A DNA stretch of 51,980 nucleotides from a virus (IMGVR_UViG_3300012943_000009:1-51980); one strand, 5' to 3'. Shown: positions 3,244 to 45,607, numbered from the stretch's first letter. The notes: generated from the sequence alone by a model not told the origin. Translations and numbers: made by a program.

Positions 3244-4026
3244 TTAGTGCTTCTTGCGGCTGCGTTTGCGTTTGCCATTGCCCGGTCCTTTGCTTGGCGG
3301 AGCCTCGGGTTGCTTTGGCTTAGGCTCAGGGTCAGGCATCCTTTCCTTTCGGAGAACGAGCGGCGGAACCTCAGGTCCACCGTCAATGACTGTTACCTCT
3401 GTCGTTGCAGGAGGCACGACTTGCAGACCTGCAATTCCGAACAACGGAGGCACAGGTGCAGAAGGATGCTCTTCTGGAGGCGGAGTAAACTCCATCACTT
3501 TGGGCTCTTCCGGTTCACCACGCTTCGCAGCAAGCGTAGCCTGCCGCACACGGAGTTCACCAATCCAGTTGCTCGTCCATTGCATGCAAGAGATAACCAA
3601 GCACGCCACTCGCAGGAGAGATTCCTGAAAGGAAACGGGGTGTAGAATCGCTTGAGCACACTCACGAATCTGGAGCATGACCTGTTCGATCAGTTCACGC
3701 GGATCGCCAGCACCCATCATCTCCCACATGAGTTTGCCCTCGAACTCTGGCGATGCTTCCTGTCGGAGCAACTCCCGTTCGATAGCCATGTAGTAGTCCT
3801 CACGACCTGATGAGAGGGGAAAGACTGCGAAGTTGCTGGCCTCTGATAGGTTAGCTAACTCCAGCGCCTTCCAGATAGCTTGTTCGAGTGTCATCGTAGC
3901 GATCGGCCCGAGAGGAATGTCGATTCCGCTGGGCTTTCGCACCACGAATGTGGGCTGTGTGTCTTTGTCACCTGCCACCTGAATGTCGAGGACGGTAGCG
4001 AGAGCTTGAGAGAGTTGAAGTTTCAC
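3244..4026 (-). CDS. Hypothetical protein with a possible degenerate MazG-like helical segment
   Basis: Coupled ORF; AIERELLRQE...ESLLRVACLVISCMQW weakly resembles phage MazG-like proteins; Pro-rich tail. Confidence 0.5.
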   Translation of the reverse strand: MKLQLSQALATVLDIQVAGDKDTQPTFVVRKPSGIDIPLGPIATMTLEQAIWKALELANLSEASNFAVFPLSSGREDYYMAIERELLRQEASPEFEGKLMWEMMGAGDPRELIEQVMLQIRECAQAILHPVSFQESLLRVACLVISCMQWTSNWIGELRVRQATLAAKRGEPEEPKVMEFTPPPEEHPSAPVPPLFGIAGLQVVPPATTEVTVIDGGPEVPPLVLRKERMPDPEPKPKQPEAPPSKGPGNGKRKRSRKKH

Positions 4027-4568
4027 GATTGTTTGAAGAGGCTGAGGAGGAGTTCGTATTCCGATGTATTGATAGACGCAGGGTTGAGCATGGCTCGAGT
4101 GATCAGGCCATTCTCTAACTCTGAGAACTGTGCAGCACTACTATGCAGACGGCTGGCAATCTCAGTCATGACCACTGCTTGAGCAGGGGTAATCGTTTTT
4201 GCAGGGCTGCAAAAGTTTTCGACCTGACCGCTACCTACCGTTTCGCCGGTGCTTTTCATCGGCAGGTCAGGCTGCGCAGGAAGCGGAGCGAGTTCGCCAG
4301 CGATGCCAGCATACCCACCGATATCGACGTAATTGTCAGCGTGAGTGGGGTTGAGGGCGATGCGCGCTACCTTCTGGAGGACGCACATCACAGCCACATC
4401 ATGTGGCATCAGTGGACCTTGAGGGTGAACGGACAGGTAGTTTGTCCACAGCGCGGCGATCAACTCATGTGATACATGAGGGTCGCCGTATTCTTCTTGG
4501 CGCGAGCCGGTGATTTTGGTGATGGCATCCGTGAGGATGTCAGCGCGATTATGGGTGGATGCTTTCAT
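4023..4568 (-). CDS. DUF6378-like phage protein
   Basis: IL..A...ITG.RQ.EYGDP...IA.LW..YL...DVA.M..L.KVAR...H.DNYVDI.GYA signature. Confidence 0.8.
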   Translation of the reverse strand: MKASTHNRADILTDAITKITGSRQEEYGDPHVSHELIAALWTNYLSVHPQGPLMPHDVAVMCVLQKVARIALNPTHADNYVDIGGYAGIAGELAPLPAQPDLPMKSTGETVGSGQVENFCSPAKTITPAQAVVMTEIASRLHSSAAQFSELENGLITRAMLNPASINTSEYELLLSLFKQS

Positions 4569-4891
4569 GCGATTACAATGCGGCCGATGTTGAGTTCGAT
4601 AGAGACTTGGCCAAATTCATCTACCTCGGTGGTGTTTTCGATCGCCTCTTTGAGAGGGATCATGATGGAGTTGAAGATCGAAGAAAACGATTTGTTCACA
4701 CGAGGATCATTGCACCAGTTACGGATCACGAAGTATGCTCCTTCGATTTCACCTATACGTGGGCGGAAGCCTGTGTATGTGTTCTCTTGGTTGATTTTAC
4801 GACCTCGGTTAAAGGCACGGACGAGTTCGCCCGACCCCCAACCTTTGCCCGATCTTGTTTTAGGTGGTGTTATTTTGGTTGTTGTGCTCAT
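4565..4891 (-). CDS. Hypothetical protein
   Basis: Overlapping start/stop with both neighbours. Confidence 0.65.
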   Translation of the reverse strand: MSTTTKITPPKTRSGKGWGSGELVRAFNRGRKINQENTYTGFRPRIGEIEGAYFVIRNWCNDPRVNKSFSSIFNSIMIPLKEAIENTTEVDEFGQVSIELNIGRIVIA

Positions 4892-6297
4892 GTTGATTTG
4901 ATCCAGTCGGCTACGCCTTCGGTGATAAGTTTGCGTTCATCACGGCCAGAAGCCAATGTCGTGCGATAGACATGGGAATCCAACGACCCAGCCACTTGGA
5001 GATACTTGTAGAAACACGTAGAATGTTGCGAAGCCCGTCCCCGATCGGTCCGTCCGCGGGACTGCTGCATATCAAGCCATTTGAAATTAGATGAATAGTA
5101 AATGGCGTAAGGAGTGTTTGCGAAATGATTGACTGACGACCCGCTCGCTTCTGTTGCCAGACATACACGAGCGTCACCGCGGCGCCAAGCGTCCAAGTCA
5201 AAAGGGTGTCCAGATAACATTTGCAGGACTGCAAATGGAGCATGGCGAGCGAGCATCTTAACATCATGACGGAACGCACACCATACGACGACCGAGTGTC
5301 CGGCAGTAACAATGTCGGAGACTTCATCCCACAGCTTTTCAGCTTTATTGCTTGGGACAGGGCGATAGATTCCCTCGTCAGTCTTGATCCAACCATCTGC
5401 AATCTGTTGAGCCTTAACGCTAATGACGATAGCGTGATCATACTCCAGATCAAGCTCTTCAATCGAGTAGAATTCTTTGAGTTCATGGAAGTATTGAAGT
5501 TGCTTAGGAGTTGGTTCAATCGTGTGGAACTGTTCGTGTATGAGACGGTCGCCTTCGGGAAAGTGAATAGAGGCAACCTCACGTAGGGAACGCATGATCT
5601 TCTTGTAGCTACCTTTACGCGGGACGGTGCGAGGAAAGTGTTCATTGCCTATTTGGATGGACTTCTGATAGAGAGAGCGGAACTTGGTTAGGGATGGGGC
5701 TAGGAATCTGTGTTTCTGCACAGCGGATGCTTGGTTATACACTTCGCATGTATCTCGTGCCTTCATGATGGTGCCACTTAACCCAGCGGAGAAGCGGTTA
5801 CGTGTCAGCAAGTGAGCACACTTGGATCGTTCGGACTTGTTATTTGCATACATCCACAGTTCGTCGATCACTACGAAGCGGATCATTGGGTTGTTTTGCA
5901 GGGCTGCAAAACGCTGATTGCGGGTGGTCTTTCCTTTGCGCTTGCGACCACGGGCCATGTCGCCTGCGCTGATCAACAGGAAGACGGGCTTGCGACCGGG
6001 AGGGTGAACGGGTATGTCGTTAGTGTAGACTGAGGGTTTGTAAAAGCAGCGACGGATTTCCTCTTCCCAATCTTGGAAGGCAGACTTGCGGCACACCACC
6101 AAGCAGATGCTCGGCAATGCCCAGCGATATGCATTTTGCAGGGCTGCAAAAAGGAACAATGCGATGCGAGTCTTACCCTCGCCCACCTTCCACCACACGA
6201 TGCCTCCTCGTGAGCGCGTGAGCTTACGAACAGCATCATGCTGCTGCGGAAACAGAAAGCGCTCTGCGTATTTAGCGTAGAGGGGGTAACGATTCAT
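4888..6297 (-). CDS. SF2 (SNF2-like) helicase/ATPase
   Basis: LFPQQ, VGEGKT, VIDE, LSGT, VVWC.F and QQSRGRTDR motifs. Confidence 0.85.
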   Translation of the reverse strand: MNRYPLYAKYAERFLFPQQHDAVRKLTRSRGGIVWWKVGEGKTRIALFLFAALQNAYRWALPSICLVVCRKSAFQDWEEEIRRCFYKPSVYTNDIPVHPPGRKPVFLLISAGDMARGRKRKGKTTRNQRFAALQNNPMIRFVVIDELWMYANNKSERSKCAHLLTRNRFSAGLSGTIMKARDTCEVYNQASAVQKHRFLAPSLTKFRSLYQKSIQIGNEHFPRTVPRKGSYKKIMRSLREVASIHFPEGDRLIHEQFHTIEPTPKQLQYFHELKEFYSIEELDLEYDHAIVISVKAQQIADGWIKTDEGIYRPVPSNKAEKLWDEVSDIVTAGHSVVVWCAFRHDVKMLARHAPFAVLQMLSGHPFDLDAWRRGDARVCLATEASGSSVNHFANTPYAIYYSSNFKWLDMQQSRGRTDRGRASQHSTCFYKYLQVAGSLDSHVYRTTLASGRDERKLITEGVADWIKST

Positions 6298-7833: not shown

Positions 7834-7870
7834 GCTCTAAGTGTGGCACGTAACTGAAAGGAAAGGATTA

Positions 7871-9037: not shown

Positions 9038-9306
9038 GGAGAATCTGGCATACCCCACTGACCTTGGCCGCCTATATCGTAGGGTAGTTTCTCCTTTGCT
9101 TTTTGCAGGGCTGCAATTTTGTTCTCCAGCTTTTCCACCTGCCGAGTGAGTTCCGCACGGTCACGAATGAGAGATCGGATGACCTTGAGACATAGCGTGT
9201 AGTTGTCCTTGCCGAATCGTTGCTTGGACTCTTGCTTAACCAGCCACGCCAGTGCCTCCATAGGGTTAACAGATTCATCGGGCTCAGGCTCATCCACGGG
9301 GATCAC
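9034..9306 (-). CDS. Hypothetical coiled-coil protein
   Basis: ORF overlapping the end of the ligase gene; heptad-like segment. Confidence 0.6.
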   Translation of the reverse strand: MIPVDEPEPDESVNPMEALAWLVKQESKQRFGKDNYTLCLKVIRSLIRDRAELTRQVEKLENKIAALQKAKEKLPYDIGGQGQWGMPDSP

Positions 9307-10207
9307 GAATGGATTTGAACACGGGAGCCCGAGGGAGAACCTTCATGCCGTGGTGCTGGTATTTGAATGTGATATGCTTACCGATGATGCGGCTAGGGTC
9401 TGCCCACCATTGTATCTTCTGCGACTCAGTCATTCCTGACGCCACATAGATGGTGTGCTTGCGCCAGCGGCATACGAGTTTACCCACCATCCCTTTTCCT
9501 TTCAGTCCTGCCATGTGTTTGCTGCGTTGTATGAGGCCGCGTTCATTTAACTTTGCAGGGTTGCAATTCTCCTGCTCTTCCTCGACACCGATGACTTCTG
9601 CCTCGTCGTCTGTGAAGCGTTTCACCTTGAGCAGGTATGCCTCATTGAGGGTAGAGCGCCCCTCCTTATACCATCCACCGGGGGAGCGCAGCATGATGCC
9701 CTCTTTCCCCCGACGCAAAGCGTGGGCTTCGCGCGCTTCGATATCGTGGATGGTATTGCACTTATACTGGCGCAGCCATGCTAGATGAAAGCCGTGCTCG
9801 TCGTTTGTCTGGAAGCGCTCGACTGTCTCCTGCCCCAGCAATGCACGTTCGAGATATGGATCGTAGATGTTCTCATAATAATCAAACACACGATAGACGA
9901 AGTTGGGATCGCCCTCCTGTGACATGACTGCGGACTGCGTGTCGTTGAAGCTGAGGTCACGCCCATACTTATCTAGGCATACGAGTTCCCCATCGCAATA
10001 GTTCAGGTTATCATCACCTAACACCATGCAGATATACTTGTTGGGCACAGGCTTCATCTGCCCTGTGATAGCTCCGCGTTGCGGACATATGAGACAGCGT
10101 ATGCCGTCCTCCTTATCGCTTGCCCATAGCGGAAGAGTGTTTTGCAGGCCTGCAAAATCCAACACCGGCTCGGTTGGTGCCTTGAGCGGTCTAGTTAGAA
10201 TGCGCAT
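9290..10207 (-). CDS. ATP-dependent DNA ligase
   Basis: KEDGIRC (motif I), DGEL, VFD, EGIMLR, LLKVK and a C-terminal OB domain ending PRAPVFKSIRD. Confidence 0.93.
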   Translation of the reverse strand: MRILTRPLKAPTEPVLDFAGLQNTLPLWASDKEDGIRCLICPQRGAITGQMKPVPNKYICMVLGDDNLNYCDGELVCLDKYGRDLSFNDTQSAVMSQEGDPNFVYRVFDYYENIYDPYLERALLGQETVERFQTNDEHGFHLAWLRQYKCNTIHDIEAREAHALRRGKEGIMLRSPGGWYKEGRSTLNEAYLLKVKRFTDDEAEVIGVEEEQENCNPAKLNERGLIQRSKHMAGLKGKGMVGKLVCRWRKHTIYVASGMTESQKIQWWADPSRIIGKHITFKYQHHGMKVLPRAPVFKSIRDPRG

Positions 10208-10279
10208 AAATTTCTTGCCAGTAACGGTAATTGTGTCGGGAGTTTAGTCCGTGATGGGCGAACATTTCTTGGAATAGAA

Positions 10280-10810
10280 TCATTTGCGTGAAACGAGCCA
10301 TGACTTCGTGAGTTTGGTGATTTTGATGGGGACTTGAGTCTCCTGTTTGATTGCATAGGTGAGTTGCTCAGGATGTGATACATACCAATCAGGTATGCTA
10401 GCGATGGGCAGACGCAGGCGTTTGAATCGCGGCTCATCAAGTGCGATCCACGCCTTGATTGTGCCTTTGACCGAGGGTCGAAGGGTGGTGCGAACATTGC
10501 GCTCCTTAGCCTGCATAGACAGACGGACTGTAATGTGAGTGGGTGAGGTCAGATGCCCTGAGCATGACTCCCAATCGCCATCATCACGTTGGAGACGGAC
10601 GAGCACCTTCGCTGCGAGCAGAGACGGATTACCCTTGTAGGAGTCCGCAAGCAGGGACTTGCTGATGATAGCCGTGAAGGGTTCATTGCTGCCCGTAGTC
10701 TGCGTATAGGCGTAGCCCGCAAGCAACACGACTATACCTTCTCCGTTTTGCAGCCCTGCAATTTCTGCTGCGGCTTGCAGGTCAGCCTCGTTATTGAGTT
10801 TGAGTTTCAA
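10280..10810 (-). CDS. Hypothetical protein
   Basis: 176-aa ORF co-oriented with neighbours. Confidence 0.55.
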   Translation of the reverse strand: MKLKLNNEADLQAAAEIAGLQNGEGIVVLLAGYAYTQTTGSNEPFTAIISKSLLADSYKGNPSLLAAKVLVRLQRDDGDWESCSGHLTSPTHITVRLSMQAKERNVRTTLRPSVKGTIKAWIALDEPRFKRLRLPIASIPDWYVSHPEQLTYAIKQETQVPIKITKLTKSWLVSRK

Positions 10811-11027
10811 GGTGTTTGATGATGATGTTGACTGCGGTGATTTGTCGCGTGAGTTTGGAGCACTTCACCTTGCTGCGCCGGTAGCCGGGTGTCGAGCGGA
10901 CAGAGATACCTTGCATGAGATTGTCAATCTCACGGAAGCGTGTGCACATGTCATCGCGCACGGATTTGAGTTGTTGGATTTCGTTCTTAGTTGGCGTGGG
11001 CGTGTGCGTGGGCGTGGGTGTGGACAT
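10791..11027 (-). CDS. Hypothetical protein
   Basis: Start MSTPTPTHT at 11027 after a CA-rich leader. Confidence 0.55.
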   Translation of the reverse strand: MSTPTPTHTPTPTKNEIQQLKSVRDDMCTRFREIDNLMQGISVRSTPGYRRSKVKCSKLTRQITAVNIIIKHLETQTQ

Positions 11028-11049
11028 ATAGGTGGGGTTGTGGTATGAT
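11021..11049 (+). promoter_or_regulatory. Sigma70-type promoter, leaderless
   Basis: TGGACA-N17-TATGAT with an extended TG, 6 nt before ATG 11056. Confidence 0.6.
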
Positions 11050-11055
11050 AATGGT

Positions 11056-11670
11056 ATGCACTTTACAAAAATGACAACTGCTAAAAAGACCCTCGTTCCC
11101 AAGCAGCGCCCGAAGGTGATTGCGGGAGCGGCTGGAATGCGTGACGCCACTGTTCGTATGAAGCGAGTAGTGGGCGGAGGCTCTGCTCTGAAACGCATGG
11201 GGCAGGACGGTGAAGCAACGCACGAGAACATCGTGCGCACTCTCGCCTTGACGGATCACACTCACAATGCACGCGGAACTGCAACGGTGCCGCTGGAGAT
11301 TGAGAAGGAAGCGATAGCCGAAATCGTGGGTGGTGCATCACCAGCTGAAATCGAGACGAAATATCAACTCGCCAAGGGGTATGTGAGTCACGCATTGAAA
11401 CGTCGGTTTGGATCGCAGGAAGCGGCTTTTGCAGCCCTGCAAGGACTGACTTTGGAGGTTGCATTGGCGTGTAATGTGCATGCGCTGACACAGGTAGAGC
11501 ACATGTCAGGGCCACAAGCAGTGATGTCAGGCGCCATCGCCACGGATAAGGCATTAGCATTGCAGAAGGCTATTCAAGATCGGCCAAAGACGATAGACTT
11601 TGGACAACTGGCTGAGATGGGAAAAGTCTTGAAGGTGTTACGGGAGATTTCGACTCCGACGGATTCTTGA
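11056..11670 (+). CDS. HTH DNA-binding protein (terminase small subunit-like or regulator)
   Basis: GASPAEIETKYQLAKGYVSHALKR is HTH-like; helical GAIATDKALAL; the only plus-strand gene in the left arm. Confidence 0.55.
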   Translation: MHFTKMTTAKKTLVPKQRPKVIAGAAGMRDATVRMKRVVGGGSALKRMGQDGEATHENIVRTLALTDHTHNARGTATVPLEIEKEAIAEIVGGASPAEIETKYQLAKGYVSHALKRRFGSQEAAFAALQGLTLEVALACNVHALTQVEHMSGPQAVMSGAIATDKALALQKAIQDRPKTIDFGQLAEMGKVLKVLREISTPTDS

Positions 11671-11920
11671 TCTTCATGATGCGGGCAGCGATCTGCTCGG
11701 GAGTGCCCCATGATTTGAATGTGGCGGCACACTGAGCACGCTTGTAGAGAGCGGTGACGACACCGCAAACGATTTGATGATGCCGAGGCACGGGCGGGAA
11801 CGCCTCCGGTCGTGCAATGCGAGGCGGCACCTTCTTGCGCTTCTTGGACTTGGGCACGGTGGTGTGGAACTTGAGCATGAGGCGATCCACGATCGCATCG
11901 ACGTTAGTTGAATTGGACAT
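11570..11920 (-). CDS. Hypothetical basic protein
   Basis: ATG 11920; convergent overlap with the HTH gene. Confidence 0.5.
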   Translation of the reverse strand: MSNSTNVDAIVDRLMLKFHTTVPKSKKRKKVPPRIARPEAFPPVPRHHQIVCGVVTALYKRAQCAATFKSWGTPEQIAARIMKIKNPSESKSPVTPSRLFPSQPVVQSLSSLADLE

Positions 11921-12173
11921 TTTGTTTTTGCAGGGCTGCAATCATGTTTTGCTGGGTGATGTATTGCTTGATGTGTTGAACGCAGTGAAAGATGGCTTTC
12001 TGCGACATTTCAGGGAAGGCACGGCTGATCATATCCATGAGTATGGGACCGTTAGGGTAAGGCTGCTGAATGATCTGCTTTTGCAGATCAGTGATGCGAT
12101 CAAGCATGCGGATCACTTCGATTGCATCGTCAGAACTCAGAAAGAAGAACTTAGAGAACGGTGGCTGGCTCAT
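11904..12173 (-). CDS. Hypothetical protein
   Basis: Coupled ORF. Confidence 0.6.
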   Translation of the reverse strand: MSQPPFSKFFFLSSDDAIEVIRMLDRITDLQKQIIQQPYPNGPILMDMISRAFPEMSQKAIFHCVQHIKQYITQQNMIAALQKQNVQFN

Positions 12174-12619
12174 TTGTGGGAGAGTTCGGCGTTGGGCCAG
12201 ATGCGTTTGAGTTGGCGGCAGAATGTGTGACGTGCTTCTGCGGTGTTCTCAACCTCGGCACGGACAGCTCCATAGAGCCTGTGATATGCGAGCATATGAC
12301 AAACACCATGACGCAGGTCCCATGTGAGTTCGTATGAGATAGGACGACCGGTCCTGCGGGCCTTGCTCACGTCGAGCGTCAGATCAGCGTTGCGGGAAGT
12401 GTCGATCGCATCAGGCACGGTGTAGAGCGTGTAGCGATACTTGCTGATGCTGCTGTTGCCTGCGTCTTTGAATGATGTGGCCTGTGATTGCAATGTGTGC
12501 AGGCACAAGGCCGCTTCTTCCTTTGATGTGCGGGAAAACTTGGCGACGACAGACTTGATGCCTTTTTGCTTGGGGTCAGGATTGAACAGACGGCGATAGA
12601 TGATGTATTTGGTGGTCAT
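12170..12619 (-). CDS. Hypothetical protein
   Basis: ATG 12619 overlaps the upstream stop. Confidence 0.6.
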   Translation of the reverse strand: MTTKYIIYRRLFNPDPKQKGIKSVVAKFSRTSKEEAALCLHTLQSQATSFKDAGNSSISKYRYTLYTVPDAIDTSRNADLTLDVSKARRTGRPISYELTWDLRHGVCHMLAYHRLYGAVRAEVENTAEARHTFCRQLKRIWPNAELSHK

Positions 12620-12957
12620 GATTTGGGTGCGGTGGGTGCGGTGGGTGCGGTGGGTGCGATGAGGGTGTGAGCGACGGTGGTGAGAACTTTCTCGACTACG
12701 ATCACTTCGCATGTGCCTAAGTTGTTGACGTAGATTTCGATGTTGAACTTCATGTTGTTGTGGAGTGACTCAGCAGTGACGGTGTGATGGTGGCCGTTGC
12801 TGTGAATTGCAGCCCTGCAAAACATATCACCGCGATGCTGATAGACTTGAACATCGGTTATCGCATGGATGTGATGTGAGGGCATGATTTGGAACGTGAG
12901 AGTGAATTCCTCGCTCTCATCGTTCTTACTGTTGAACTTTAAGGAGTATTTCTTCAT
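12616..12957 (-). CDS. Hypothetical protein with a C-terminal (PTA)n repeat
   Basis: ATG 12957 overlaps the upstream stop; 9-bp tandem repeat at about 12626-12658. Confidence 0.6.
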   Translation of the reverse strand: MKKYSLKFNSKNDESEEFTLTFQIMPSHHIHAITDVQVYQHRGDMFCRAAIHSNGHHHTVTAESLHNNMKFNIEIYVNNLGTCEVIVVEKVLTTVAHTLIAPTAPTAPTAPKS

Positions 12958-13178
12958 AGGTAGTTTTGGTGAGTATGCTGGTCGATCTTCCGGTTGAATG
13001 TGATTGACCACAATTCAAGGTGCATCCCACATCCCTTCTCTTTCAGAACGGTGAACAACTGCCGAGCGTGCTCGCAGCTGAGTTCGTGTGTGGTCACAGC
13101 ATAGAGTTTGGTCTTGATGCGCACCACGAACGGACTGAAAGGAAAGGATGGTCTGGGATTCTTTATTCCGACTGACAT
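12954..13178 (-). CDS. Hypothetical protein
   Basis: Directly follows a leaderless promoter. Confidence 0.65.
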   Translation of the reverse strand: MSVGIKNPRPSFPFSPFVVRIKTKLYAVTTHELSCEHARQLFTVLKEKGCGMHLELWSITFNRKIDQHTHQNYL

Positions 13179-13184
13179 ACAATT

Positions 13185-13212
13185 AGTATAACAGGTATTC
13201 GTGTTAAGTCAA
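13185..13212 (-). promoter_or_regulatory. Sigma70-type promoter, leaderless
   Basis: TTGACT-N16-TATACT, 6 nt before ATG 13178; palindrome copy 13215-13230 lies immediately upstream of the -35. Confidence 0.75.
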
Positions 13213-13233
13213 TATTTGCAGGGCTGCAAAGAG

Positions 13234-13650
13234 CTAGAGAACTTCGACTTCAATGGCGATGGAGTTCCCAAATTGCATGAGAGCAATGCCATAGAATGTG
13301 CCTGTGCGGTCGTGATGCAGAGACTCAGACATGCGATCGAATTGCATCTTAGCCTTCTCACGTGTCATGAGATCGCTGGTGAGATCAGTCTTGTATTCAG
13401 TAGCGAAGCCCACAGTGAGAATGACGTAGTGATCCTGTGTTGGTGTTGGTGTTGGTGTTGGTGTTGGTGTTGGTGTTGGTGTTGGTGTTGGTGGGGAGGG
13501 GAGAGGGTAGCGAGCACTCAGACGATCGAGCAGGTTGTGACCTTGCTCGTGTGTGAGACGCAGTTGTAGCTGACGGGGCGTGGCTGCCCATGAGAGAACT
13601 TCATCGGGAAATATGTGGAAGTTGAATGGTGGTTGTTTGGGTGTTGACAT
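13234..13650 (-). CDS. Hypothetical protein with a (PT)n linker
   Basis: ATG 13650 after a CA-repeat leader. Confidence 0.6.
   Translation of the reverse strand: MSTPKQPPFNFHIFPDEVLSWAATPRQLQLRLTHEQGHNLLDRLSARYPLPSPPTPTPTPTPTPTPTPTPTQDHYVILTVGFATEYKTDLTSDLMTREKAKMQFDRMSESLHHDRTGTFYGIALMQFGNSIAIEVEVL
13437..13493. repeat. (TGTTGG)n hexamer tandem repeat, about 9 units
   Basis: Seen directly; encodes PTPTPT on the minus strand. Confidence 0.9.
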
Positions 13651-13669
13651 GGCATGGTGTGTGTGTGTG

Positions 13670-13891
13670 TTAGAGGCTGCTGTTGAGCGGGCAGGATGGA
13701 AGCGGATGTTCTTGCGTGAGTTCGTCTTTGTCGTCGTCATCGACGGTGATCGTCAGGCGGCAGTTAGGATTGATACAGCGTCCCACATAACCTTCGATTT
13801 CGCGGGAGAGCGTCCATATGATGTCGTGGCCTTGATTTCTCGCGTTGATGTGAATGCGCTGTGCGGCTGTGTGTGTGGATGGTTTTGGCAT
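13670..13891 (-). CDS. Small Cys/His-containing hypothetical protein
   Basis: ATG 13891 after a CA-repeat leader; H...C.NP.C...C. Confidence 0.55.
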   Translation of the reverse strand: MPKPSTHTAAQRIHINARNQGHDIIWTLSREIEGYVGRCINPNCRLTITVDDDDKDELTQEHPLPSCPLNSSL

Positions 13892-13911
13892 GGTGTGTGT
13901 GTGGGTGTGGG

Positions 13912-14316: not shown

Positions 14317-14359
14317 GTGGTTTGGTTTGGTTTTGTGTGGATTTCTACTGTCAAGCCCT

Positions 14360-37422: not shown

Positions 37423-40400
37423 ATGTGGACTCAACAAGACGAAGCAAGGCTGCAAGAATTGCAGCATTCACTAGGCGCTGGCCCTCAGCAAGTTCCAGCC
37501 GAAAACCCTGAAGGCTACGGCATCTTAGGGTTTTCGGGACGAACAGCCGCGAACATCCTACCGGGTGCGCTGGAGAAGCTCATCAACATTCCCGAAGGCA
37601 TTCTCAACATGGGCGTGCCTGAGGACTATCAGTCTCAGCTGACTACGGTGCCGAACTTCTTTGACGTTCGCGCGCCACAAAGCATTTCTGAGCATATCAT
37701 TGGAGGAGCCGGAGAGATTGCAGAGTATCTACCTTCGATCATTGCAACCGAGGGCGCAGCCGCCAGCGGGCTTGCTCGCCTCGGCATGGCAGTCCCACGC
37801 ACTGCGGAAGCAATCGCTGCGGGTGCACGTCTCGCTCCGACTCGCGCTGCCCGCATCGCTGCGTCAGGTATTGGACAAGGTTTACCGATGACCCCGCATG
37901 GAGCAGAGACAACGATGGAGCAAGGTGGGGTTGGCGCGCTGCAAACTGCTGCAATGGATTGGGGGTGGAGGGGCAAAGCCGCTGCCAGTCTGATCGGTGG
38001 TGGTATTGGTTATTACCAAGGAGCACACGGCCCCGATGGCACGCCTTTGCAGGGTGCAATCTACGGCGGGCTAAACGCTCTCGGGCCTATCGCTATCGAC
38101 CCGCTTGTGAACAAGCTGACTGGCTATAAGCCGGGCGCCAAACCGGGCGGCGACCCGATTCCGGGACAACCTGCTACTCCGTATGGACCAGCCGAACGTC
38201 CTGACATTCTGCAGACCGGACGAACGGGTCTGCCTTTCGGCGTGGATGAAGCAATGGCCGATGCACAACGGACAACGGGTGCAGGTGCTCCTTATGACGT
38301 TTTTGGTGGGCGCGTGGAGCCGTGGTCTGGCTTGCGTCGTTCAACCGATCAAGGTCCGCTCCAACCCGGTCCCAACGGTTTGCCCTTCTACGAGGCACCT
38401 GACACCAGCGGGATGAGTCTGCGCCAAGACCCCGCGCAAACTGCGGCTGCTGCGGAAATGGCTGCTCCTTCTGCACGTGTTCGTCGCACTGATTACCCAC
38501 AAGCCAACCTGATGCAGCGCCAACTGTTCCCCATTCAAGGTGAAGTGGGCATGGGCAATCTGTTTGGCGGATTGGACCCTCGCATTGAAAACATCGCGCA
38601 GAGTCCTTACGGAAACGCAACCAGCCCTTATGACATTTTTGCAGGGCTGCAAACTGAGTTCCTCTCGCCTGCGGAGCGTGCGCACTTCCGCGACGGACCA
38701 CCTGCCAAGACTCGCACGCAAGAGACTCTGCGGCTGCCTGATCCCAACTCCACTCCATCAGCGAGCGGACTTCGGTTGACAGATCGCCCAGCACCTGAAC
38801 CCGGAATCCCTTTCCTTTCAGATACTACGCCAAGCGGCATGAAGCTGTGGACCGACCCGCTCTCTCCCAACGAGCGTGCCACTCAGCGTGGACAAGTGCA
38901 AGTCTGGAACAATCCAGATCAGTCTGCTCCTTACGTGCAAGGTGTCTCCCCTCACCCCGGTCTGAACTTTGGTCTGATGGGAACGGGTTCGGAATTCGCC
39001 TACGGTCGGGGCACTGATCCATTCGACATCTTCGGTGCGCGGGGTGTCCAGCCTGCTCCGATCATGTCGCAAGGTGAGACGTTCGCCAAAGGAGGTCTGT
39101 TTCCGCAAGCTCCTCTCTCCCCCGGTGAACAGGTGGCAATCTCAGGACACCGTGCGGGTCGTGACGTGCCTGTGCCGCAGATGCCTGAGCGCAAGCCTAC
39201 TCCTGTTACTTCCACTCCGGCAGGCAAAGGTAAAATTGCAGCCCTGCAAAATGTCTTCACTCCTCAAGGCAAGCCCTTCAAAGCTAAGCCTACGGGAAAG
39301 CCACGTATCGTTGCATCTGCTGTTCGCGATAACGCTACGGGCAAGATTGTTACTGGTGCTGTGTGGAACGATATGCACAAGAGCGTCAAAGAACAGAACA
39401 AAATGGCACATCTGTTCGATGTTGGCGACGATGCACAAGAAGCAACACACGGTTTCATCGTTGAAGATGAAGCAGGTAACATTCGTCCCGAGTTCGACCG
39501 TGATGCGGCAGGCGTGATCGCAGATGCTGCAAGACAACGAGATACGGAGTATGGTGGATACAGGTTACAAAGCGAGCACCTGCGAAACCCCACTAAGCCG
39601 GTTGAACCGGCACCCGCCGCAGCGGGACCTGCTCCTCATATCGCTGAACTTGAAGCGCTGAAAGAAGCAGCTAGCTTAGCTAACACTAAGCACCAAAATA
39701 TGTGGGGTGCTAAGGCGGACTATCCTTACAAGCAACGTAGAAAAGTTCGTGATGAGGCATATGCGTTAAATGACAAGGTTGATGCGATGTGGGAGAAGCA
39801 CTATGGCTCACGACTGACCGGCAGGAACGAAGCTGGCCAGACGTTCTCGGAGTGGATGACAGGTATCACGCCCGAGTATAAGGCCATGATGAAGAAGATC
39901 GAAGCAGAAGAAGCTGCTCGTGCTGCTGCTCCTTCTTTGCAGAAACTCGAGGATGCTGAGATTGCGCTCAACTACATGGCGGATAAACTGTTCAAGATGC
40001 AGCATGGCAAGATAAAGGGAGCTACTGCAAAAGGCATTGCCGATCATATTGCGGAAGTTGCACGCCTGCAAAAGGTCTATAACGACTTACGTGAAGCACG
40101 CTATGGTAAGCGGGACAACGTCGCGCCAAAAGCTGCGGACGTTGCGCCTGAGCCTGCCCCTGCCGCAGCGGGAAGCATGCCAGTTGCAGGCCTGCAAACT
40201 CCAAGTGGTATAGCTGCTCATGTATCCAGCATTCCTATGTATCGAGGCGTCCGTGGCGCACATAAGGGGGCGGGGATTAAAGGACCACAATACTTCATCA
40301 GTTCTGAATCGTTCGCTAAAACTTACGGACCAACCGAAGCGCACACTCTCAATCTTAAAAATCCCAAGATCGTCTCGGATGCGGAATGGCCTGCGTATTC

Positions 40401-43400
40401 GAGCAACGCGTTCAATCCTGCTAGCGAGATTGCACAGAAGCTAATCGCGGAAGGTCACGATAGTGTAGTCAATATCCGCAAGACCACAGCAGGTGATATG
40501 ATCACCACAATGGTCGTGGATGCAGAACAAGCACTAAAGTCCAAGGTCGAACCTGTTGTAGCCCCGGTCAAAACCAACAAGGCTCCGACAAAGGCTGACG
40601 TTGCACCTGAGCCTGCTCTGATCAAACCTGACGCGGTGCCCGAAGACGGACGCCCGAAAGTGATGGTGCCCAGCAAGCTCGAAGGTGCATGGGTGGAAGC
40701 CACTGTGATCGGAAAGGACAGGGATGTATTGACGGTGAAGGTCAACGATATCCACGATCCGATCTACGGCGACCGCACGATGGACATTGCCGAGAAGGAG
40801 ACACGACCTTTTGCAGCCCTGCAAAAAGCTGCCGAGGGCGGAGGCACCGTGCCATTCAAAGACGTTGAGTCTTCCCCTCTCACTCGCAAAGACGCGGTCA
40901 AGGGAGAGAACTACGGTGGTGCTGGTGACGAGACAATGCTGGGCAGCGTAATCGAAAGCAGCGGTCCGGCCAAGACTCACAAGACTCTGAAAGGAAAGGC
41001 GGGAACACAGAAGTGGGTTCTGGGAATTAAGGAAGCACTAGACCTTCTACCTGCTGAACCGCGCGCAATACTGGCGGAGATTCTCCACCAAGTGAATGTG
41101 GCGGTAGGGCGCGATATGCCCATCCACTTTGAGCGGGACATGCAAGGCGCGAAAGGTGGGTCGTATACTCTCTCCGGGCGCATCGGCGTTAATCTGCATT
41201 GGTTGAATCAAGTAGTGCAGGATTGGGAGAAGATGTCTCCCGCTAAGCAGGCGGATGCGCTGATGCAAGCTACGGCTTTGCTTGGGCATGAAGTCACCCA
41301 CACGGTCCAACGCTTTGCCGAGCAGTCCGGCATGGCGATCAATGGAGTGCCCATCACTGATGTTATTGTGGCAAGTGTGAACGGCATGTCGCTCTCTTCG
41401 CGCAAGTATGTTGCGGAGCAAATTCTGAAAGCAAAGGGACAGAAGAATGCCAGCCAGCGTGTGATCGACTACTTGTCTGGCGATTCGGCCATGATCAAAA
41501 AGTGGTATGAGCAGAAGCGTGGACCTCTCTCACAAGCGCAGGTCGAGCGACTAGCTGCTGGCGAGGTCATGGCGGAAGTTGGATCAATCGAATTGGTCAA
41601 GCGCATGAAGTTTGATGGCTTGCCTCAGACCTTTCGCGAGGCGGTTGACCGCTTCAAACAAGTGCTTGTTAATGTCACTAAGTGGATCACCGGCACCAGC
41701 AAGGATCACGATATTGCAGCCCTGCAAAACCTGCAAAGTATCGCCTCGAAGATGTATGACCACTTCGGTGCAGCGGACGAGCATGGTCTGGCTAAGGCTT
41801 TCCAGCATAGCACGCAATGGAAAGAGGCACCCACGGTTAATCCTTTCTCTTCAGCAGCCCCGAAGCCTCCGGGCACGCCGGGTAGCACGGTCACAGTTCC
41901 TCCTGACGTGGAGGTTCTCAATGGCGCGCTGTTGAGGCACGAGATACTGCGTCTCGGTGTGCGGGGTGCTGTCGGTGGAACCATCGGTGCTTTTGCAGGT
42001 CCTGCAATAGCGCCCAATCAGATCACCACCGCGGAAGGTATCTTGCTTGGTGGTATTGCGGGCGTGTTCGGTGTTACCGTCGCGAAGAAACTGATGAGTG
42101 GGAACCTTGCTGTCGAAGCGGCTGCTGCACTCAAAGCTCACCCGAAGAACCCTCTCAAAGCATTGGGTCATATCTTGGGCGGTGGCAAGTCGCTGCAAGA
42201 ACTCGGCATCGAAGGGAGGCACGGATGGAACGGCATTGGAAGCAGCATGGCCAAGTGGGTGCGTCAGTTTGAAAAGGACTTCGACCTCAACCTCGATCCA
42301 AAGCAGAAGGCATTGTTCGAGGATGCGCGTGGTGCGGGTGCTGAGCAGATTGCAATTATGACTGACGCGTTTGATAAGACACGCTGGTTCAAGCCAAACG
42401 CCAGCATGATCGAAGCGGTCGGCCATTATCTGGAAGGGCGTATCAGCAAGGACGATTATATGCGTCTGCTCACTACTCCCGAACAGCAGCAATACGGCAA
42501 CTTCATCGTGACTGCACGTGAGGCAATGACCAACCTGAGCAATATGTTTGCGGACGGTTTGCCTAATGGTGCATTCAAGAAGCATGTGATGGAAACGAGC
42601 GAGACATATCTCGGCAAATTCTACACCGCTTATACCGACGGCAAGTTCAAGATGGAGCATTTCGATGCTGCCAAAAAGGACATGATGGCTAAGCTCAATT
42701 ACTCGGATCAGACCGCAGATGCACTAATGCATGAGTATATGCGCGAGGTCCATGCGAACCGCAAAATGTTCAGCACTGGTCGGCGTGGTGAGTCAGGTGA
42801 GAAATATGATACCAGCACGCTCATGCGTCGTATGGCTACCGAGGAAGAAATCCAAGGGCAGAGCATGGTGGTCGCAGGATTGGAGCATGATAAGCACGGC
42901 ACTGACTACATTCGCGAGAAAGCAAAGCTCGACTGGATGGAGGAGCACAAGATCACGGACAACTGGCGTCGGTGGTTAGGCGAAGTTGAAAACCCATTGC
43001 AGCGTATGGTCTACACCATTCAGAAGATTCATGCTTCTGCGATCAGCGGTAAAGCCTTTGATCTGCTGGATACGATGACGCATACCAATGGAAACAAGTT
43101 CAGCTACACGTCGAAAGATATTCTGCAAGCACGCGCGTTACTTGAGAGCGAGATTGCCAAAGCCACTCCAGATAAAATTGCAGGCCTGCAAATTCGGCTT
43201 CGCGACTTGAATGGTTACGGGCCTCTTCCTCAAGGTGCAGCTTACGGCAAACTCTCGGGCAAGTGGGTAGATCGCTTCACTCGCGATGGCATCAACACTT
43301 ACGACTCGCCATATAAATGGTTGGAACAGCCGATCATTCGCTCTATGGCGGAGTTCAACAACCTGATCAAGATTGGGCATACCGCATACAATCCGCTGAC

Positions 43401-44772
43401 GGTCATGCGAAACTACATGCAGGCTCCTATAATGGGACTGATCGCACGCACGACCGCGGGCGATGTCGGGTCTGCGTGGAAAGAGATTCACTACACCAAA
43501 GGTGAGGACTACCGACTCATGCTGCGTAAGCATGTGATCGGTAGTGACTTCTCCACGCAAGAGTTGAGCAAGGGACCGGGCACAATCTTCTCAGGCCATA
43601 TGGACGCAGACATTGCGGTCAAAGCCGGAAAGGAAATTCATCGCGCTGTGCTCAAGGGCTACCAGCAGCCTGACATGATTATTCGTGCCGGTGCATTCAT
43701 TAGTGCTCGTAAGCGTTTCGCTCAACAGGCGTTGGAGAAGGGGATTGAAGTGATGGACGATCAAGGCGTTAAATCGGCACAGCATTTTGCAGACCTGCAA
43801 GAAGCGATGAAGCATGAAGGCGTCATCAACCAAGCAGTCGAGTTCACCAACCGTTACACGATGAACTACGCGACAGTGCCTGCCATCGTGAAGGCTGGGC
43901 GGCAGTTGCCCTTCATCAATCTGTATATCTCTTACACGTCGGAGATTACGCGCATCCTCAAGAACCTAACCGAGGACATGATTGCTCCCGGCCCGAACTC
44001 GGCTGGCCGTATGCACGCGATCACTACGCTGGCTGCGATGGCAGCGATCCCCACGATCATGACGATGGGCGGAAGGTCTATGCTCAGTGACCGCGACCGG
44101 AAAGATTGGGACCAAGTCGAAGCGCTCTCGCCCGGCTACAATCGCTCGCGCTTCCGCATACCTTACAAGCGCGAGGCTGACGGACGGTTTCGTTACTTCG
44201 ACATCACGAATCTACTGCCTGCCGATAACTTCTCACAGATGACGAAAGCGTTGGTGCAGGGAGATAACGCAGCATTCTGGAGCGCCAACCCGCTTGTCTC
44301 GATGCAGAACACTCCTTTGCTCAACATGGCTACGGAGCAGATCACGGGCAAGGATATGCGGACAGAGCAGTCTATTGAAGGCTTTGGCCGCGTGCGAGAG
44401 ATTCTGAAAGAAGTGTTGCCTCCTATCCTGCCTCCCGGCTACGAGGGTCAGCGGTTGCAGCGCGCCTTCTCCACGAATGTGGAAGGGACCGCAGGTCTGA
44501 CCAACATGCGAACTGGCGTGCAGTATCGCCCCTCGGACATTGTCGCGAACTACCTGACGGGCATGCGCTTCGGCAACGTCATGCTCTCGACTATGCAGAA
44601 GGGAGCAATCTCGGAGGCCAAGCAGCAGATCGCCGAGCAGCAACAGTTGATGCGCGAGACGACCAACATGAATGCAGGTCCCGCTGCCGCGCAACATGCG
44701 ACGGAGATTTACAACAAGGCCGTCGAGCAGATCATGCTCCAGCTGCACAGCAAGATGCCCAGCACGCAGTAG
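37423..44772 (+). CDS. Giant polyvalent internal virion protein (ART-like module, HExxH zincin motif, membrane-type segments, LPD38-like C-terminus)
   Basis: 2449 aa; MYRG...QYFISS..FAKTY...LNLKNP...GHDSVV; LGHEVTH; GxxxG-rich hydrophobic stretches. Confidence 0.7.
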   Translation: MWTQQDEARLQELQHSLGAGPQQVPAENPEGYGILGFSGRTAANILPGALEKLINIPEGILNMGVPEDYQSQLTTVPNFFDVRAPQSISEHIIGGAGEIAEYLPSIIATEGAAASGLARLGMAVPRTAEAIAAGARLAPTRAARIAASGIGQGLPMTPHGAETTMEQGGVGALQTAAMDWGWRGKAAASLIGGGIGYYQGAHGPDGTPLQGAIYGGLNALGPIAIDPLVNKLTGYKPGAKPGGDPIPGQPATPYGPAERPDILQTGRTGLPFGVDEAMADAQRTTGAGAPYDVFGGRVEPWSGLRRSTDQGPLQPGPNGLPFYEAPDTSGMSLRQDPAQTAAAAEMAAPSARVRRTDYPQANLMQRQLFPIQGEVGMGNLFGGLDPRIENIAQSPYGNATSPYDIFAGLQTEFLSPAERAHFRDGPPAKTRTQETLRLPDPNSTPSASGLRLTDRPAPEPGIPFLSDTTPSGMKLWTDPLSPNERATQRGQVQVWNNPDQSAPYVQGVSPHPGLNFGLMGTGSEFAYGRGTDPFDIFGARGVQPAPIMSQGETFAKGGLFPQAPLSPGEQVAISGHRAGRDVPVPQMPERKPTPVTSTPAGKGKIAALQNVFTPQGKPFKAKPTGKPRIVASAVRDNATGKIVTGAVWNDMHKSVKEQNKMAHLFDVGDDAQEATHGFIVEDEAGNIRPEFDRDAAGVIADAARQRDTEYGGYRLQSEHLRNPTKPVEPAPAAAGPAPHIAELEALKEAASLANTKHQNMWGAKADYPYKQRRKVRDEAYALNDKVDAMWEKHYGSRLTGRNEAGQTFSEWMTGITPEYKAMMKKIEAEEAARAAAPSLQKLEDAEIALNYMADKLFKMQHGKIKGATAKGIADHIAEVARLQKVYNDLREARYGKRDNVAPKAADVAPEPAPAAAGSMPVAGLQTPSGIAAHVSSIPMYRGVRGAHKGAGIKGPQYFISSESFAKTYGPTEAHTLNLKNPKIVSDAEWPAYSSNAFNPASEIAQKLIAEGHDSVVNIRKTTAGDMITTMVVDAEQALKSKVEPVVAPVKTNKAPTKADVAPEPALIKPDAVPEDGRPKVMVPSKLEGAWVEATVIGKDRDVLTVKVNDIHDPIYGDRTMDIAEKETRPFAALQKAAEGGGTVPFKDVESSPLTRKDAVKGENYGGAGDETMLGSVIESSGPAKTHKTLKGKAGTQKWVLGIKEALDLLPAEPRAILAEILHQVNVAVGRDMPIHFERDMQGAKGGSYTLSGRIGVNLHWLNQVVQDWEKMSPAKQADALMQATALLGHEVTHTVQRFAEQSGMAINGVPITDVIVASVNGMSLSSRKYVAEQILKAKGQKNASQRVIDYLSGDSAMIKKWYEQKRGPLSQAQVERLAAGEVMAEVGSIELVKRMKFDGLPQTFREAVDRFKQVLVNVTKWITGTSKDHDIAALQNLQSIASKMYDHFGAADEHGLAKAFQHSTQWKEAPTVNPFSSAAPKPPGTPGSTVTVPPDVEVLNGALLRHEILRLGVRGAVGGTIGAFAGPAIAPNQITTAEGILLGGIAGVFGVTVAKKLMSGNLAVEAAAALKAHPKNPLKALGHILGGGKSLQELGIEGRHGWNGIGSSMAKWVRQFEKDFDLNLDPKQKALFEDARGAGAEQIAIMTDAFDKTRWFKPNASMIEAVGHYLEGRISKDDYMRLLTTPEQQQYGNFIVTAREAMTNLSNMFADGLPNGAFKKHVMETSETYLGKFYTAYTDGKFKMEHFDAAKKDMMAKLNYSDQTADALMHEYMREVHANRKMFSTGRRGESGEKYDTSTLMRRMATEEEIQGQSMVVAGLEHDKHGTDYIREKAKLDWMEEHKITDNWRRWLGEVENPLQRMVYTIQKIHASAISGKAFDLLDTMTHTNGNKFSYTSKDILQARALLESEIAKATPDKIAGLQIRLRDLNGYGPLPQGAAYGKLSGKWVDRFTRDGINTYDSPYKWLEQPIIRSMAEFNNLIKIGHTAYNPLTVMRNYMQAPIMGLIARTTAGDVGSAWKEIHYTKGEDYRLMLRKHVIGSDFSTQELSKGPGTIFSGHMDADIAVKAGKEIHRAVLKGYQQPDMIIRAGAFISARKRFAQQALEKGIEVMDDQGVKSAQHFADLQEAMKHEGVINQAVEFTNRYTMNYATVPAIVKAGRQLPFINLYISYTSEITRILKNLTEDMIAPGPNSAGRMHAITTLAAMAAIPTIMTMGGRSMLSDRDRKDWDQVEALSPGYNRSRFRIPYKREADGRFRYFDITNLLPADNFSQMTKALVQGDNAAFWSANPLVSMQNTPLLNMATEQITGKDMRTEQSIEGFGRVREILKEVLPPILPPGYEGQRLQRAFSTNVEGTAGLTNMRTGVQYRPSDIVANYLTGMRFGNVMLSTMQKGAISEAKQQIAEQQQLMRETTNMNAGPAAAQHATEIYNKAVEQIMLQLHSKMPSTQ

Positions 44773-44790
44773 GTTTTGCAGGGCTGCAAA

Positions 44791-45057
44791 TCAGAGCTTG
44801 TCCCGTTCGGCGATCCATGCCTCCTGTCGCTCGGTGGTAATGATCGTAGTCTTACCGTCAGTGCGGTAGGTCGAGAGCATGTCATTGATCAGGACTTTGG
44901 CTGCCGCGAGTTTCTCTTCAAGATCGAGGCGAGCATCTGCCTGAATCTTGGCGACAAGCTCTTCGACTTCTTTGCCGGGAGGGGACTTACCCCCACCGAA
45001 AGCAGAGAGCATTACGGTTTCGCCAAGGTCATTGATCCATTCAACGGGATGTTTCAT
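44791..45057 (-). CDS. Hypothetical protein
   Basis: ORF bracketed by two palindrome copies. Confidence 0.65.
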   Translation of the reverse strand: MKHPVEWINDLGETVMLSAFGGGKSPPGKEVEELVAKIQADARLDLEEKLAAAKVLINDMLSTYRTDGKTTIITTERQEAWIAERDKL

Positions 45058-45079
45058 ATAGTTTTGCAGGGCTGCAAAA

Positions 45080-45607
45080 TCAGCACAGCCTGTGCTTCTT
45101 GCAATGGTAGACCAGCATCATCACCGCGTCGATGGTGTCGTGGTCGATCTTCATTTCGCTCAAGCCGAATAGCTTGAAGAAGCGGCGCGCTGTCACCACC
45201 TTCTTGACCGTGCCCTTCCAGTCAGGTGCCGTGTAGAGGAACAGCTTGCGGAAGTCCACTTGGAAGTAACCCGCGATATACATGGCGATGCCTGCGAGAT
45301 TGATCGTGTAGCCCTTGCGCGCTGCTGTCTTACCCTTGTCGCTGTCGTAGTAGGTAGGCCACTCCATCACTAGCACGTCGAAGGCGAAGCCAAGGCCGAT
45401 GATCCAATCCTTCAAGTCAGAGCAGCGCATCTGGAAGTTCATGCCGCTGACCTCGAAGCTGCCGAAGTCCCAATCATCCCGAATAACTTTTCCTTTCAGA
45501 TCGCGTTCGATCTCAACAACGGCCCAGCCGCATCTGTTCATGACTGATGGATCGAGGGCTAGGATACGGAGGATAGGCCCTTTGCAGGGCTGCAATTTCT
45601 TTTTCAT
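45080..45607 (-). CDS. RuvC-like Holliday junction resolvase
   Basis: RILALDPS...GWAV, LVME, WKG..KK and DTIDAV catalytic motifs. Confidence 0.85.
   Translation of the reverse strand: MKKKLQPCKGPILRILALDPSVMNRCGWAVVEIERDLKGKVIRDDWDFGSFEVSGMNFQMRCSDLKDWIIGLGFAFDVLVMEWPTYYDSDKGKTAARKGYTINLAGIAMYIAGYFQVDFRKLFLYTAPDWKGTVKKVVTARRFFKLFGLSEMKIDHDTIDAVMMLVYHCKKHRLC

Follow-up and report, generated by a model that had tools for sequence, protein, structure and literature searches.

A dispersed asymmetric word with lineage-specific spelling in a 52 kb metagenomic phage and its relatives: possible primer-start sites

What reads a short word that recurs, almost letter for letter, along both strands of a phage genome? 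The question is raised by IMGVR_UViG_3300012943_000009:1-51980, a complete IMG/VR virus record of 51,980 bases (the window, meaning the whole stretch analysed), in which an asymmetric word, TTTCCTTTCAG, is found inside and between genes far above chance and, in other spellings, in related phages. It looks like a lineage- and strand-specific signal that is read on the DNA by a phage enzyme. From sequence we infer, tentatively, both a reader, the phage's own primase, and a role, the copies possibly being sites at which its primers preferentially start.

Eleven exact copies of TTTCCTTTCAG are present in the window, seven on the plus strand (starting at 9495, 16227, 18886, 28724, 33736, 38811 and 45489) and four on the minus strand (3625, 7854, 13135 and 40987). 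Markov models of orders 1-4 expect 0.03-0.04 copies, and one of order 5 gives 0.15; once the copies are masked out of the training sequence, the figure for orders 1-5 is 0.02-0.04, and the 0.89 given by order 6 is circular, as that model is trained on the copies themselves. One hundred dinucleotide shuffles gave a mean of 0.04 copies and none of them reached 11, while the shuffling of synonymous codons inside genes left, over 300 genomes, 0.13 copies on average and never more than 2. The reversed word (read backwards) has no occurrence in the window. A sequence-only reading of the same DNA had reported 11 copies against about 0.03 expected, four of them extended, along with several one-off variants and both orientations inside and between genes. 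All of this is borne out, and the excess withstands the Markov and codon-aware backgrounds under which it might have been lost.

The extended form is the 16-mer ATCCCTTTCCTTTCAG, carried by the copies at 16222, 28719, 33731 and 38806 and found at 10 places in the window when up to two mismatches are allowed. The 11-mer has 15 matches at up to one mismatch; just four of these are one-mismatch variants, against 1.13 expected, so that the word is sharply defined. Its grammar is bipartite: (A)ATCC(C), a pyrimidine run, CAG and then usually a purine. In copies other than the 16-mers, ATCC, AACCC or ACCCC lies a few bases upstream, often after a second (G)AATCC(C). The base 3′ of CAG is A or G in 8 of the 11 window copies and C in none. 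K-mer ratios taken after masking of the palindrome described below were too noisy for use. A query of the full-text literature with the 11-mer and 'phage' returned unrelated papers only, mostly primer sequences and matches to 'macrophage'.

The word had also been held to be independent of a second repeated element, the palindrome TTTGCAGGGCTGCAAA, which has a 6-bp stem and a GGGC/GCCC centre and is present in 58 copies. This stands: no word overlaps a palindrome, and the closest pair is 47 nt apart centre to centre. Proximity of the two is not significant (median distance 123 nt versus 247 nt for random positions, P 0.06), and the window and a distant relative share nearly the same word core with different palindromes.

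Relative to a gene set covering 92.9% of the genome (about 7% non-coding), 4 of the 11 exact copies lie outside genes (P 0.0055), or 5 of 11 (P 0.0007) if the weak open reading frame (ORF) at 28650-28817 is dropped. Two were said to sit just upstream of -35 boxes, and both boxes belong to sigma-70-like promoters. The copy at 7854-7869 (minus strand) has the GroES-like gene (stop at 7871) on one side and, on the other, the promoter 7833-7806 (TTGACA-16-TATAAT, 12/12) followed by an ATG at 7800; it lies 20 nt upstream of the -35 box. The copy at 18881-18896 (plus) is 6 nt upstream of the -35 box of the promoter 18903-18930 (TTGACC-16-TATACT, 10/12), behind which the first late gene opens with a leaderless ATG at 18937. 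A third copy, 13135-13150 (minus), follows the -10 box of the sigma-70-like promoter 13212-13185 by 35 nt, inside a small leaderless ORF (12954-13178, minus), and is faced across 88 nt by a degenerate copy at 13031-13046 (plus; ATCCCTTCTCTTTCAG, two mismatches to the 16-mer). Three of the four 16-mers, all on the plus strand, also lie near gene boundaries or between genes. The one at 28719-28734 follows a palindrome by 43 nt and precedes the adaptor ATG (28814) by 80 nt; the one at 33731-33746 fills the gap between a stop codon ending at 33731 and the ATG of gene 33747-34502, just as had been read; and the one at 16222-16237 is intergenic, flanked by (GTGAGG)n and (GTGTGTG)n and directed opposite to the neighbouring minus-strand genes.

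The remaining copies are within genes. Two exact ones are in sense: ACACCCCG-TTTCCTTTCAG at 3625-3640 (minus), inside the ORF 3244-4026, and the fourth 16-mer at 38806-38821 (plus), which reads IPFLSD in the gene for a 2449-aa protein. Antisense exact copies lie in the DNA ligase gene 9290-10207 (minus) at 9490-9505 (plus), in the 2449-aa gene at 40987-41002 (minus) and in gene 45080-45631 (minus) at 45484-45499 (plus). In all three (11-mers 9495, 40987 and 45489) the gene frame reads CTG AAA GGA AAR, that is LKGK, with AAA as the last codon at 9490 and AAG at 40987; one of the other two frames holds a stop codon. LKGK occurs four times in 15,921 aa, and three of the four come from antisense copies of the word. 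This shared frame argues that the word has been imposed on the coding sequence and is not a by-product of it. One-mismatch copies include TTTGCTTTCAG at 41425-41440 (minus), antisense in the 2449-aa gene, and ATCCCTTCCCTTTCAG at 51116-51131 (minus), in sense within the primase-helicase gene.

Searches with TerL profiles recovered fragments and three further records of about 46-51 kb from IMG/VR and JGI metagenomes, and in these the word is enriched and kept in spellings that differ by lineage, so that its expected presence in relatives is upheld in modified form (counts are observed versus Markov-3 expectation). In G001 (24.5 kb, TerL 71%) the spelling is ATCCC-N2-5-CTTTCAG; CTTTCAG is present 10 times versus 3.8, with ATCC upstream of 7 of the 10. 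The near-identical contigs L144 and L145 (14 kb each, TerL 42%) have ATCC(N)ATCCCTTTCAGA, of which CCCTTTCAG is found 9 and 11 times, respectively, versus 0.2; it is L144 that shares nearly the same core with the window under a different palindrome. G005 (50.6 kb, TerL 43%) spells it CTCCCCYTCAG, with ATCC 3-9 nt upstream in about one-third of copies (CCCYTCAG 36 versus 3.6), and G007 (17 kb) has CTCCCCCTTCAG (11 versus 1.4). In G006 (46.5 kb, TerL 38%) a pyrimidine run is followed by TTCTGTAG (23 versus 2.6), a word that possibly belongs to the same system. Every spelling ends 3′ in CAG, or in TAG in G006, and a purine follows this core in 24/36 copies in G005 and 19/23 in G006. The spelling shifts even among close relatives of 71-90% protein identity. 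G010 (G005 shifted by 9 nt) and G002 (which repeats G001) were not counted as independent. A search with the L144 TerL returned the two known contigs only, and a primase profile run against viral contigs added G010 and the word-less G011 only.

G001, the closest relative, shares four sites with the window by synteny. Ahead of the first late gene, 17 nt separate the G001 copy from the homologue's ATG; after the palindrome ahead of the adaptor gene a copy is likewise found in G001; at gene 33747 the G001 copy directly abuts the homologue's ATG. The fourth is the antisense site at 41425, where G001 holds the exact word at homologous codons and the window has one mismatch. The two exact window copies in the giant 2449-aa gene (38806 and 40987) have no G001 counterpart, and the G001 homologue of the window's 779-aa gene carries two copies that the window lacks. 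With sites both shared and unshared, copies are both kept and turned over. Direct CAG|ATG junctions are found in the window, G001 and G005.

For pooled strand counts six records were treated as independent, giving 97 copies, and the split into structural and replication arms was made by hand from the copy lists. The strand coding for TerL holds 65 of the 97 copies (P 0.001), and 59 are co-oriented with the local genes (P 0.04) while 38 oppose them. In the structural arms, 40 of 55 copies run with the genes (P 0.001); for the replication arms the figure is 17 of 37 (P 0.74), and of the 10 copies in the replication arm of G006, 3 run with the genes and 7 against them. A bias towards the TerL strand, combined with no link to genes in the replication arms, indicates that the bias follows the DNA strand and not gene direction. 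Plus-to-minus splits are 7:4 in the window, 22:14 in G005 and 7:16 in G006.

In most of seven strand sets, copies on the same strand are more evenly spaced than random placements (Fisher combined P 0.0025). Single sets gave P 0.005 for G007+ (the best, coefficient of variation 0.36), 0.040 for G006+, 0.048 for G005+ and 0.10 for G000+, and were not significant for G005-, G006- and L144+. Copies on opposite strands come as close as 18-109 nt in L145, G006, G007 and G005 and 88 nt in the window, with inverted pairs at 497/527 (L145), 11198/11226 (G007), 12420/12445 (G006) and 13031/13135 (window). As a separate observation, the strands alternate in G005 (27 runs versus 18.1 expected, P 0.0004), where converging pairs are nearer than diverging ones (median gap about 720 versus 1440 nt); this alternation did not hold for a stricter G005 word or in the other genomes.

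Copies on both strands, their imposition on coding sequence and an antisense site kept in G001 together argue that the word is read at the level of DNA. Promoters, stoperators and nick sites are known examples of dispersed asymmetric words in phages. The present word fits none of the three cleanly, given its occurrence on both strands and through genes, the missing link to gene direction in the replication arms, the even spacing and the drift in spelling. The layout resembles that of T7 priming sites, and it is this layout, with both strands used, writing through genes, a bias at the level of the strand and even same-strand spacing, that leads us to prefer primer-start sites as a possible, if not probable, role.

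The purine-rich complement of the word is 5′-CTG-AAAGGAAAGGGAT-3′. It starts with CTG, or CTA in G006, and continues into a conserved purine-rich run of 8-13 nt, which makes it compatible in sequence with a primase template. DnaG-type primases make pppAG primers on template d(CTG) or d(CTA), starting from the middle base (PMC2978363). T7 primase uses a pentanucleotide site ending in d(GTC) with a 10-nt 3′ flank, about 10 nt of flank being needed, and in 40 kb about 14-26 such sites are active, at intervals of 1-6 kb (PMC12839067). By analogy, a DnaG/T7-type zinc ribbon and Toprim primase fused to an MCM-type helicase would read the word; the template would be d(CTG) with its conserved 8-13 nt 3′ flank, and the AG of CAG would form the start of the primer, with the weakly conserved purine behind it coming next. 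Likenesses to the T7/DnaG sites are the trinucleotide d(CTG) (d(CTA) in G006) with about 8-13 nt of 3′ flank, a number of sites no higher than a few tens per 40-50 kb with kb-scale spacing on both strands, and a phage-encoded primase of the zinc-ribbon and Toprim kind. Unlike them, the word is a near-exact 11-16-mer, where T7 sites share loose features; the helicase partner is of MCM type and not of DnaB/gp4 type; and there are relatives with the same primase that lack the word.

Domains were sought with PHROGs and Pfam in 71 ORFs of the window and 40 of G005. The candidate reader, P0002, is an unusual primase-helicase of 989 aa whose gene is joined across the ends of the record, with its 5′ end at 1-308 (minus; ATG at 308), coding for a DnaG-type CHC2 zinc ribbon (CPWH...CHAC), and its main part, with the MCM P-loop domain, at 49196-51980 (minus). 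The N-terminal match to Zn_ribbon_DnaG (E 7.3e-5, 22.9 bits) is below the Pfam cut-off of 24.9, while in the relative P0030 the zinc ribbon reaches 29 bits and passes, with Toprim_2 at 1.4e-3. In the window protein a Toprim domain, weakly matched, comes after the zinc ribbon and precedes the MCM P-loop helicase domain, which is matched at E 5e-12 and for which the top PDB sequence matches are archaeal MCM. Homologues number 93, with P0003-P0007 at 79-83% identity and many on contigs of about 47-53 kb, and precomputed Pfam annotations list the zinc ribbon in 5 of the 93 and Toprim_2 in 2. The replication module is conserved in G005. Cultured relatives, found in phages of Bacillus and Microbacterium under the annotation primase or primase/helicase, come no closer than 25% identity, and the homologues as a whole point to a large family of uncultured phages. 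The zinc ribbons of the TAG lineage (G006) and the CAG lineages differ, which is one case only. Neither ORF set yielded an RNA polymerase, a sigma factor, a nickase (HNH included) or a repressor, and the 71 window ORFs yielded no integrase or repressor domain; small unannotated proteins are present among them.

Several results weigh against primer-start sites. To our knowledge, a dispersed near-exact priming word of 11-16 nt is known for no primase, those known being trinucleotides with loose flanks. The Toprim match of the window protein itself is weak (E 0.02-0.08). At 11-15 copies, or 7-13 kb per copy on each strand, the window's word is too sparse for priming to depend on it alone. As a class, pyrimidine runs that end in AG show no enrichment (29 in the window versus 28 for the reversed control), so that a simple preference for template composition fails to explain the word. 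A middle group of relatives (TerL 48-53%; G004, G008, G009, G011 and L143) has no word of this kind: its 12-26 kb fragments hold 0-1 of each longer word, 0-4 CTTTCAG and, in great abundance, a different palindrome, AACGTTGCAA. The primase-helicase of G011 is nevertheless 42% identical to that of the window over the N-terminus, and such word-less relatives with the same enzyme show that the word is no general requirement of the enzyme family. Comparison of gene content across word-bearing and word-less phages is uninformative as to the reader, since the word-less fragments do not span the replication arm. Two alternative words for this group were rejected: TCCACCTG in G009, which is clustered and looks coding-driven, and AGCTAA in G011, which is only 3-fold enriched and too short. 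Orientation relative to a putative origin, proposed in the sequence-only reading as a check, gave no consistent switch along the genome and no consistent origin, and GC skew does not track the word; a two-domain pattern in the window accounts for 9 of 11 copies, post hoc only, and G005 does not fit it. Lastly, the intergenic excess, the conserved places before late genes and the CAG|ATG junctions are more in keeping with an expression signal.

Among other explanations, docking sites for a phage-encoded DNA-binding protein, whether regulator, roadblock or architectural protein, bound as a monomer to an asymmetric site in the manner of a stoperator, are the less doubtful, though still unlikely. 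A near-exact, asymmetric, dispersed word with lineage-specific spelling would suit such a protein, as would the over-representation of exact copies between genes in the window, the 3 of its 11 copies within 50 nt of strong sigma-70-like promoters (7854, 13135 and 18886), the occasional inverted pairs in the window and relatives and the four sites syntenic with G001. The promoters do not bear this out further, as distance and orientation differ at each site and the syntenic G001 copy has no promoter after it; nor would operator-like sites be expected to show a strand bias and even same-strand spacing. The closest comparison is with the stoperators of cluster A mycobacteriophages, bound by the L5 gp71-type repressor: asymmetric words of 13-16 bp, dispersed in dozens, often at gene boundaries, and pointing with transcription in both arms of temperate phages with a known repressor. 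The asymmetry, the dispersal and the coupling of spelling to lineage are alike; unlike stoperators, the word is co-oriented in the structural arms and not in the replication arms, and the 71 window ORFs scanned yielded no candidate DNA-binding protein, repressor or integrase, with no prophage relative found among 185,579 species genomes. Sites of localized single-strand interruption, made by a phage nickase, are somewhat less likely again. Nick-associated motifs are also present in phiKMV-like phages and T5, and the motif of phage tf is reportedly confined to one strand. A report on phage Rembedalsseter describes a 9-mer, WACTRTGAC, with 13 copies in about 45 kb versus 0.7 expected, 13/13 on one strand, kept over 61 related phages with little nucleotide similarity, both throughout coding sequences and outside them; it adds that the spelling of the tf-type motif is stable across its family and that, 50 years on, what nick sites do is still unknown (PMC11780129). 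The statistical footprint is similar: 11 copies of a short asymmetric word in 52 kb (about 10-15 per 45-50 kb), far above chance, in and outside genes, with related words kept across relatives that share little DNA similarity. The one-strand rule fails, however, at 7:4 in the window and 22:14 in G005; opposed copies 18-109 nt apart would yield staggered double-strand breaks if all were nicked; the spelling drifts among close relatives; and no HNH or other nickase domain was found in the window or G005 ORFs.

Slightly less likely than nick sites would be a phage-specific promoter with RNA starting at or just after CAG, serving late genes through leaderless or short-leader mRNAs. Promoters of the T7, T3 and SP6 polymerases are lineage-specific words of about 17 nt that end at the start site and are followed by a purine. 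The present word is alike in being lineage-specific, in the purine that follows and in copies directly before genes: co-oriented copies precede the first late gene and the adaptor and tail genes in the window and G001, copies in L144 precede the TerL and portal genes and follow the intrinsic terminator after the capsid gene, CAG abuts ATG in three of the genomes, and the structural arms are co-oriented overall. Leaderless mRNAs appear to be in use in this phage, and leaders nearly lack Shine-Dalgarno sequences. Such a promoter would want its polymerase, and no phage RNA polymerase or sigma factor was found in either ORF set; a very divergent one is possible among the ORFs without a match. The 2449-aa protein was considered as a hidden RNA polymerase and rejected, having no DxDxD, no significant PDB match (best sequence E 0.38) and a likeness to LPD38/LPD39. 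A word ending at -1 does not suit the geometry of sigma-70-family promoters. In addition, 38 of the 97 copies oppose the local genes, no orientation prevails in the replication arms, 30 of 36 G005 copies are intragenic (by longest-ORF calls) and an antisense intragenic copy is conserved. A polar signal derived from the host, resembling Chi or an uptake sequence, is very improbable. The roughly 2:1 strand bias, the G-rich complement and the Chi-sized 8-nt core of G005 would suit it, as Chi sites are known at 5-8 nt. The exact word is longer, at 11-16 nt, and its spelling changes between the window and its close relative G001 and among relatives of 71-90% protein identity, so the earlier 'Chi-like' label is dropped. 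As weak evidence, the 16-mer, searched against the 185,579 species genomes (a collection that may not include the host), gave single hits in unrelated taxa among the matches listed, and the 14-mer searched against viral contigs likewise gave single hits only among those listed. Functions beyond those considered here carry roughly the weight given to docking sites. Of the two other terms used in the sequence-only reading, 'protein-binding' is true only trivially, of any remaining reading, and 'priming signal' is the one we tentatively retain.

The window is known from a single sequencing run, a soil metagenome. Its terminal 123 bases are the same at both ends of the record, which, with the primase-helicase gene crossing those ends, indicates a circular or permuted map of 51,857 unique bases. 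No match to 25 kb of the window (megablast) or to its TerL (tblastn) was found among 50,697 GenBank phage records, and viral contigs searched with PolA gave none. A TerL profile found no relative among the 185,579 species genomes and thus offers no clue to the host. Genes form two arms, a plus arm from 18.9 to 44.8 kb and a minus arm that starts at 18.7 kb and descends past position 1 to end at 44.8 kb. The plus arm has a possible small terminase, TerL (19272-21317), a 779-aa ORF without family match that is possibly the portal, the capsid gene (26216-27166), an SU10-type adaptor (28814-29395), tail genes and the 2449-aa protein (37423-44772). This last has one HExxH, at residue 1289, and language-model features liken its C-terminal 1447 aa to the polyvalent-protein domains LPD38/LPD39 (0.93-0.95; a lead, not proof); it is probably an ejected multi-domain virion protein. 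On the minus arm are many small early genes without assigned function, a ligase, a GroES-like protein, an AAA ATPase and a helicase, a PD-(D/E)XK-type exonuclease and a Sak4-like protein, and the primase-helicase with a UDG-like protein and PolA.

Gene starts in this phage have their own peculiarities. Sigma-70-like promoter and ATG units are found at 7833-7798, 13212-13176, 11021-11058, 18903-18939 and 18056-18017, with the ATG 6-7 nt after the -10 box at four of them and 10 nt at the fifth (18056). The ATGs open ORFs of 74-288 aa, one of which, 11056-11670, is a plus-strand gene lying within the minus arm. Shine-Dalgarno sequences are nearly absent among 39 gene starts checked, and the spacing of promoter and ATG suggests that the phage uses leaderless mRNAs. 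The palindrome, found for example at 409, 1306, 2237, 21326, 25569, 27233, 31544, 36061 and 44777, is asymmetric at its centre, for the most part in line with the direction of transcription. In 7 of 39 genes checked its end lies 4-25 nt ahead of the ATG, with a one-base variant before the capsid gene, and the leaders after these gene-proximal copies are A/C-rich without a Shine-Dalgarno sequence. Relatives have palindromes of their own, TTGCAAGGCTGCAA in G001 and TGTAACGTTACA in G003, besides that of the middle group.

Several other repeats are apparent. The region 10000-17000 has a very high GC skew (+0.17 to +0.30), low coding scores and GT/CA microsatellites, including (GTGTTG)9.5 at 13437-13493 and (GTGTGTG)6 at 16258-16299, and its ORFs are without homologues in G005 and G006. 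Within it, a 340-nt non-coding stretch at 14391-14740 contains (TA)13 at 14500-14526, two pairs of 10-11-nt direct repeats and a strong, bidirectional-looking hairpin at 14674-14699, and is a candidate replication origin. The divergent region of L144 carries four 21-nt iterons (ATTCATTGGG...) about 80 nt ahead of a copy of the word. Tandem GCCACCA/GCCACCAGCA repeats at 18808-18856 lie between a palindrome and the word at 18881, just upstream of the first late promoter. At 423-1250 (minus), GAC/GAG-rich tandem repeats code for a very acidic protein of 275 aa, with homologues in G005 and G011, that could be an SSB-like protein or a DNA mimic.

If the word is indeed a start signal for the phage primase, these uncultured phages of about 50 kb may carry an extended, lineage-specific primase start word, placed every few kb on each strand, essential genes included, and co-evolving with the enzyme, a proposal that we put forward as tentative. 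It would be the first priming signal, dispersed and defined by sequence, in any double-stranded DNA phage, would offer a testable system for site choice by primases and would let the specificity of a primase be deduced from nothing but the genome sequence. Should the word prove to be something else, it would still be a conserved signal of a phage family that is large in metagenomes and has no cultured member.

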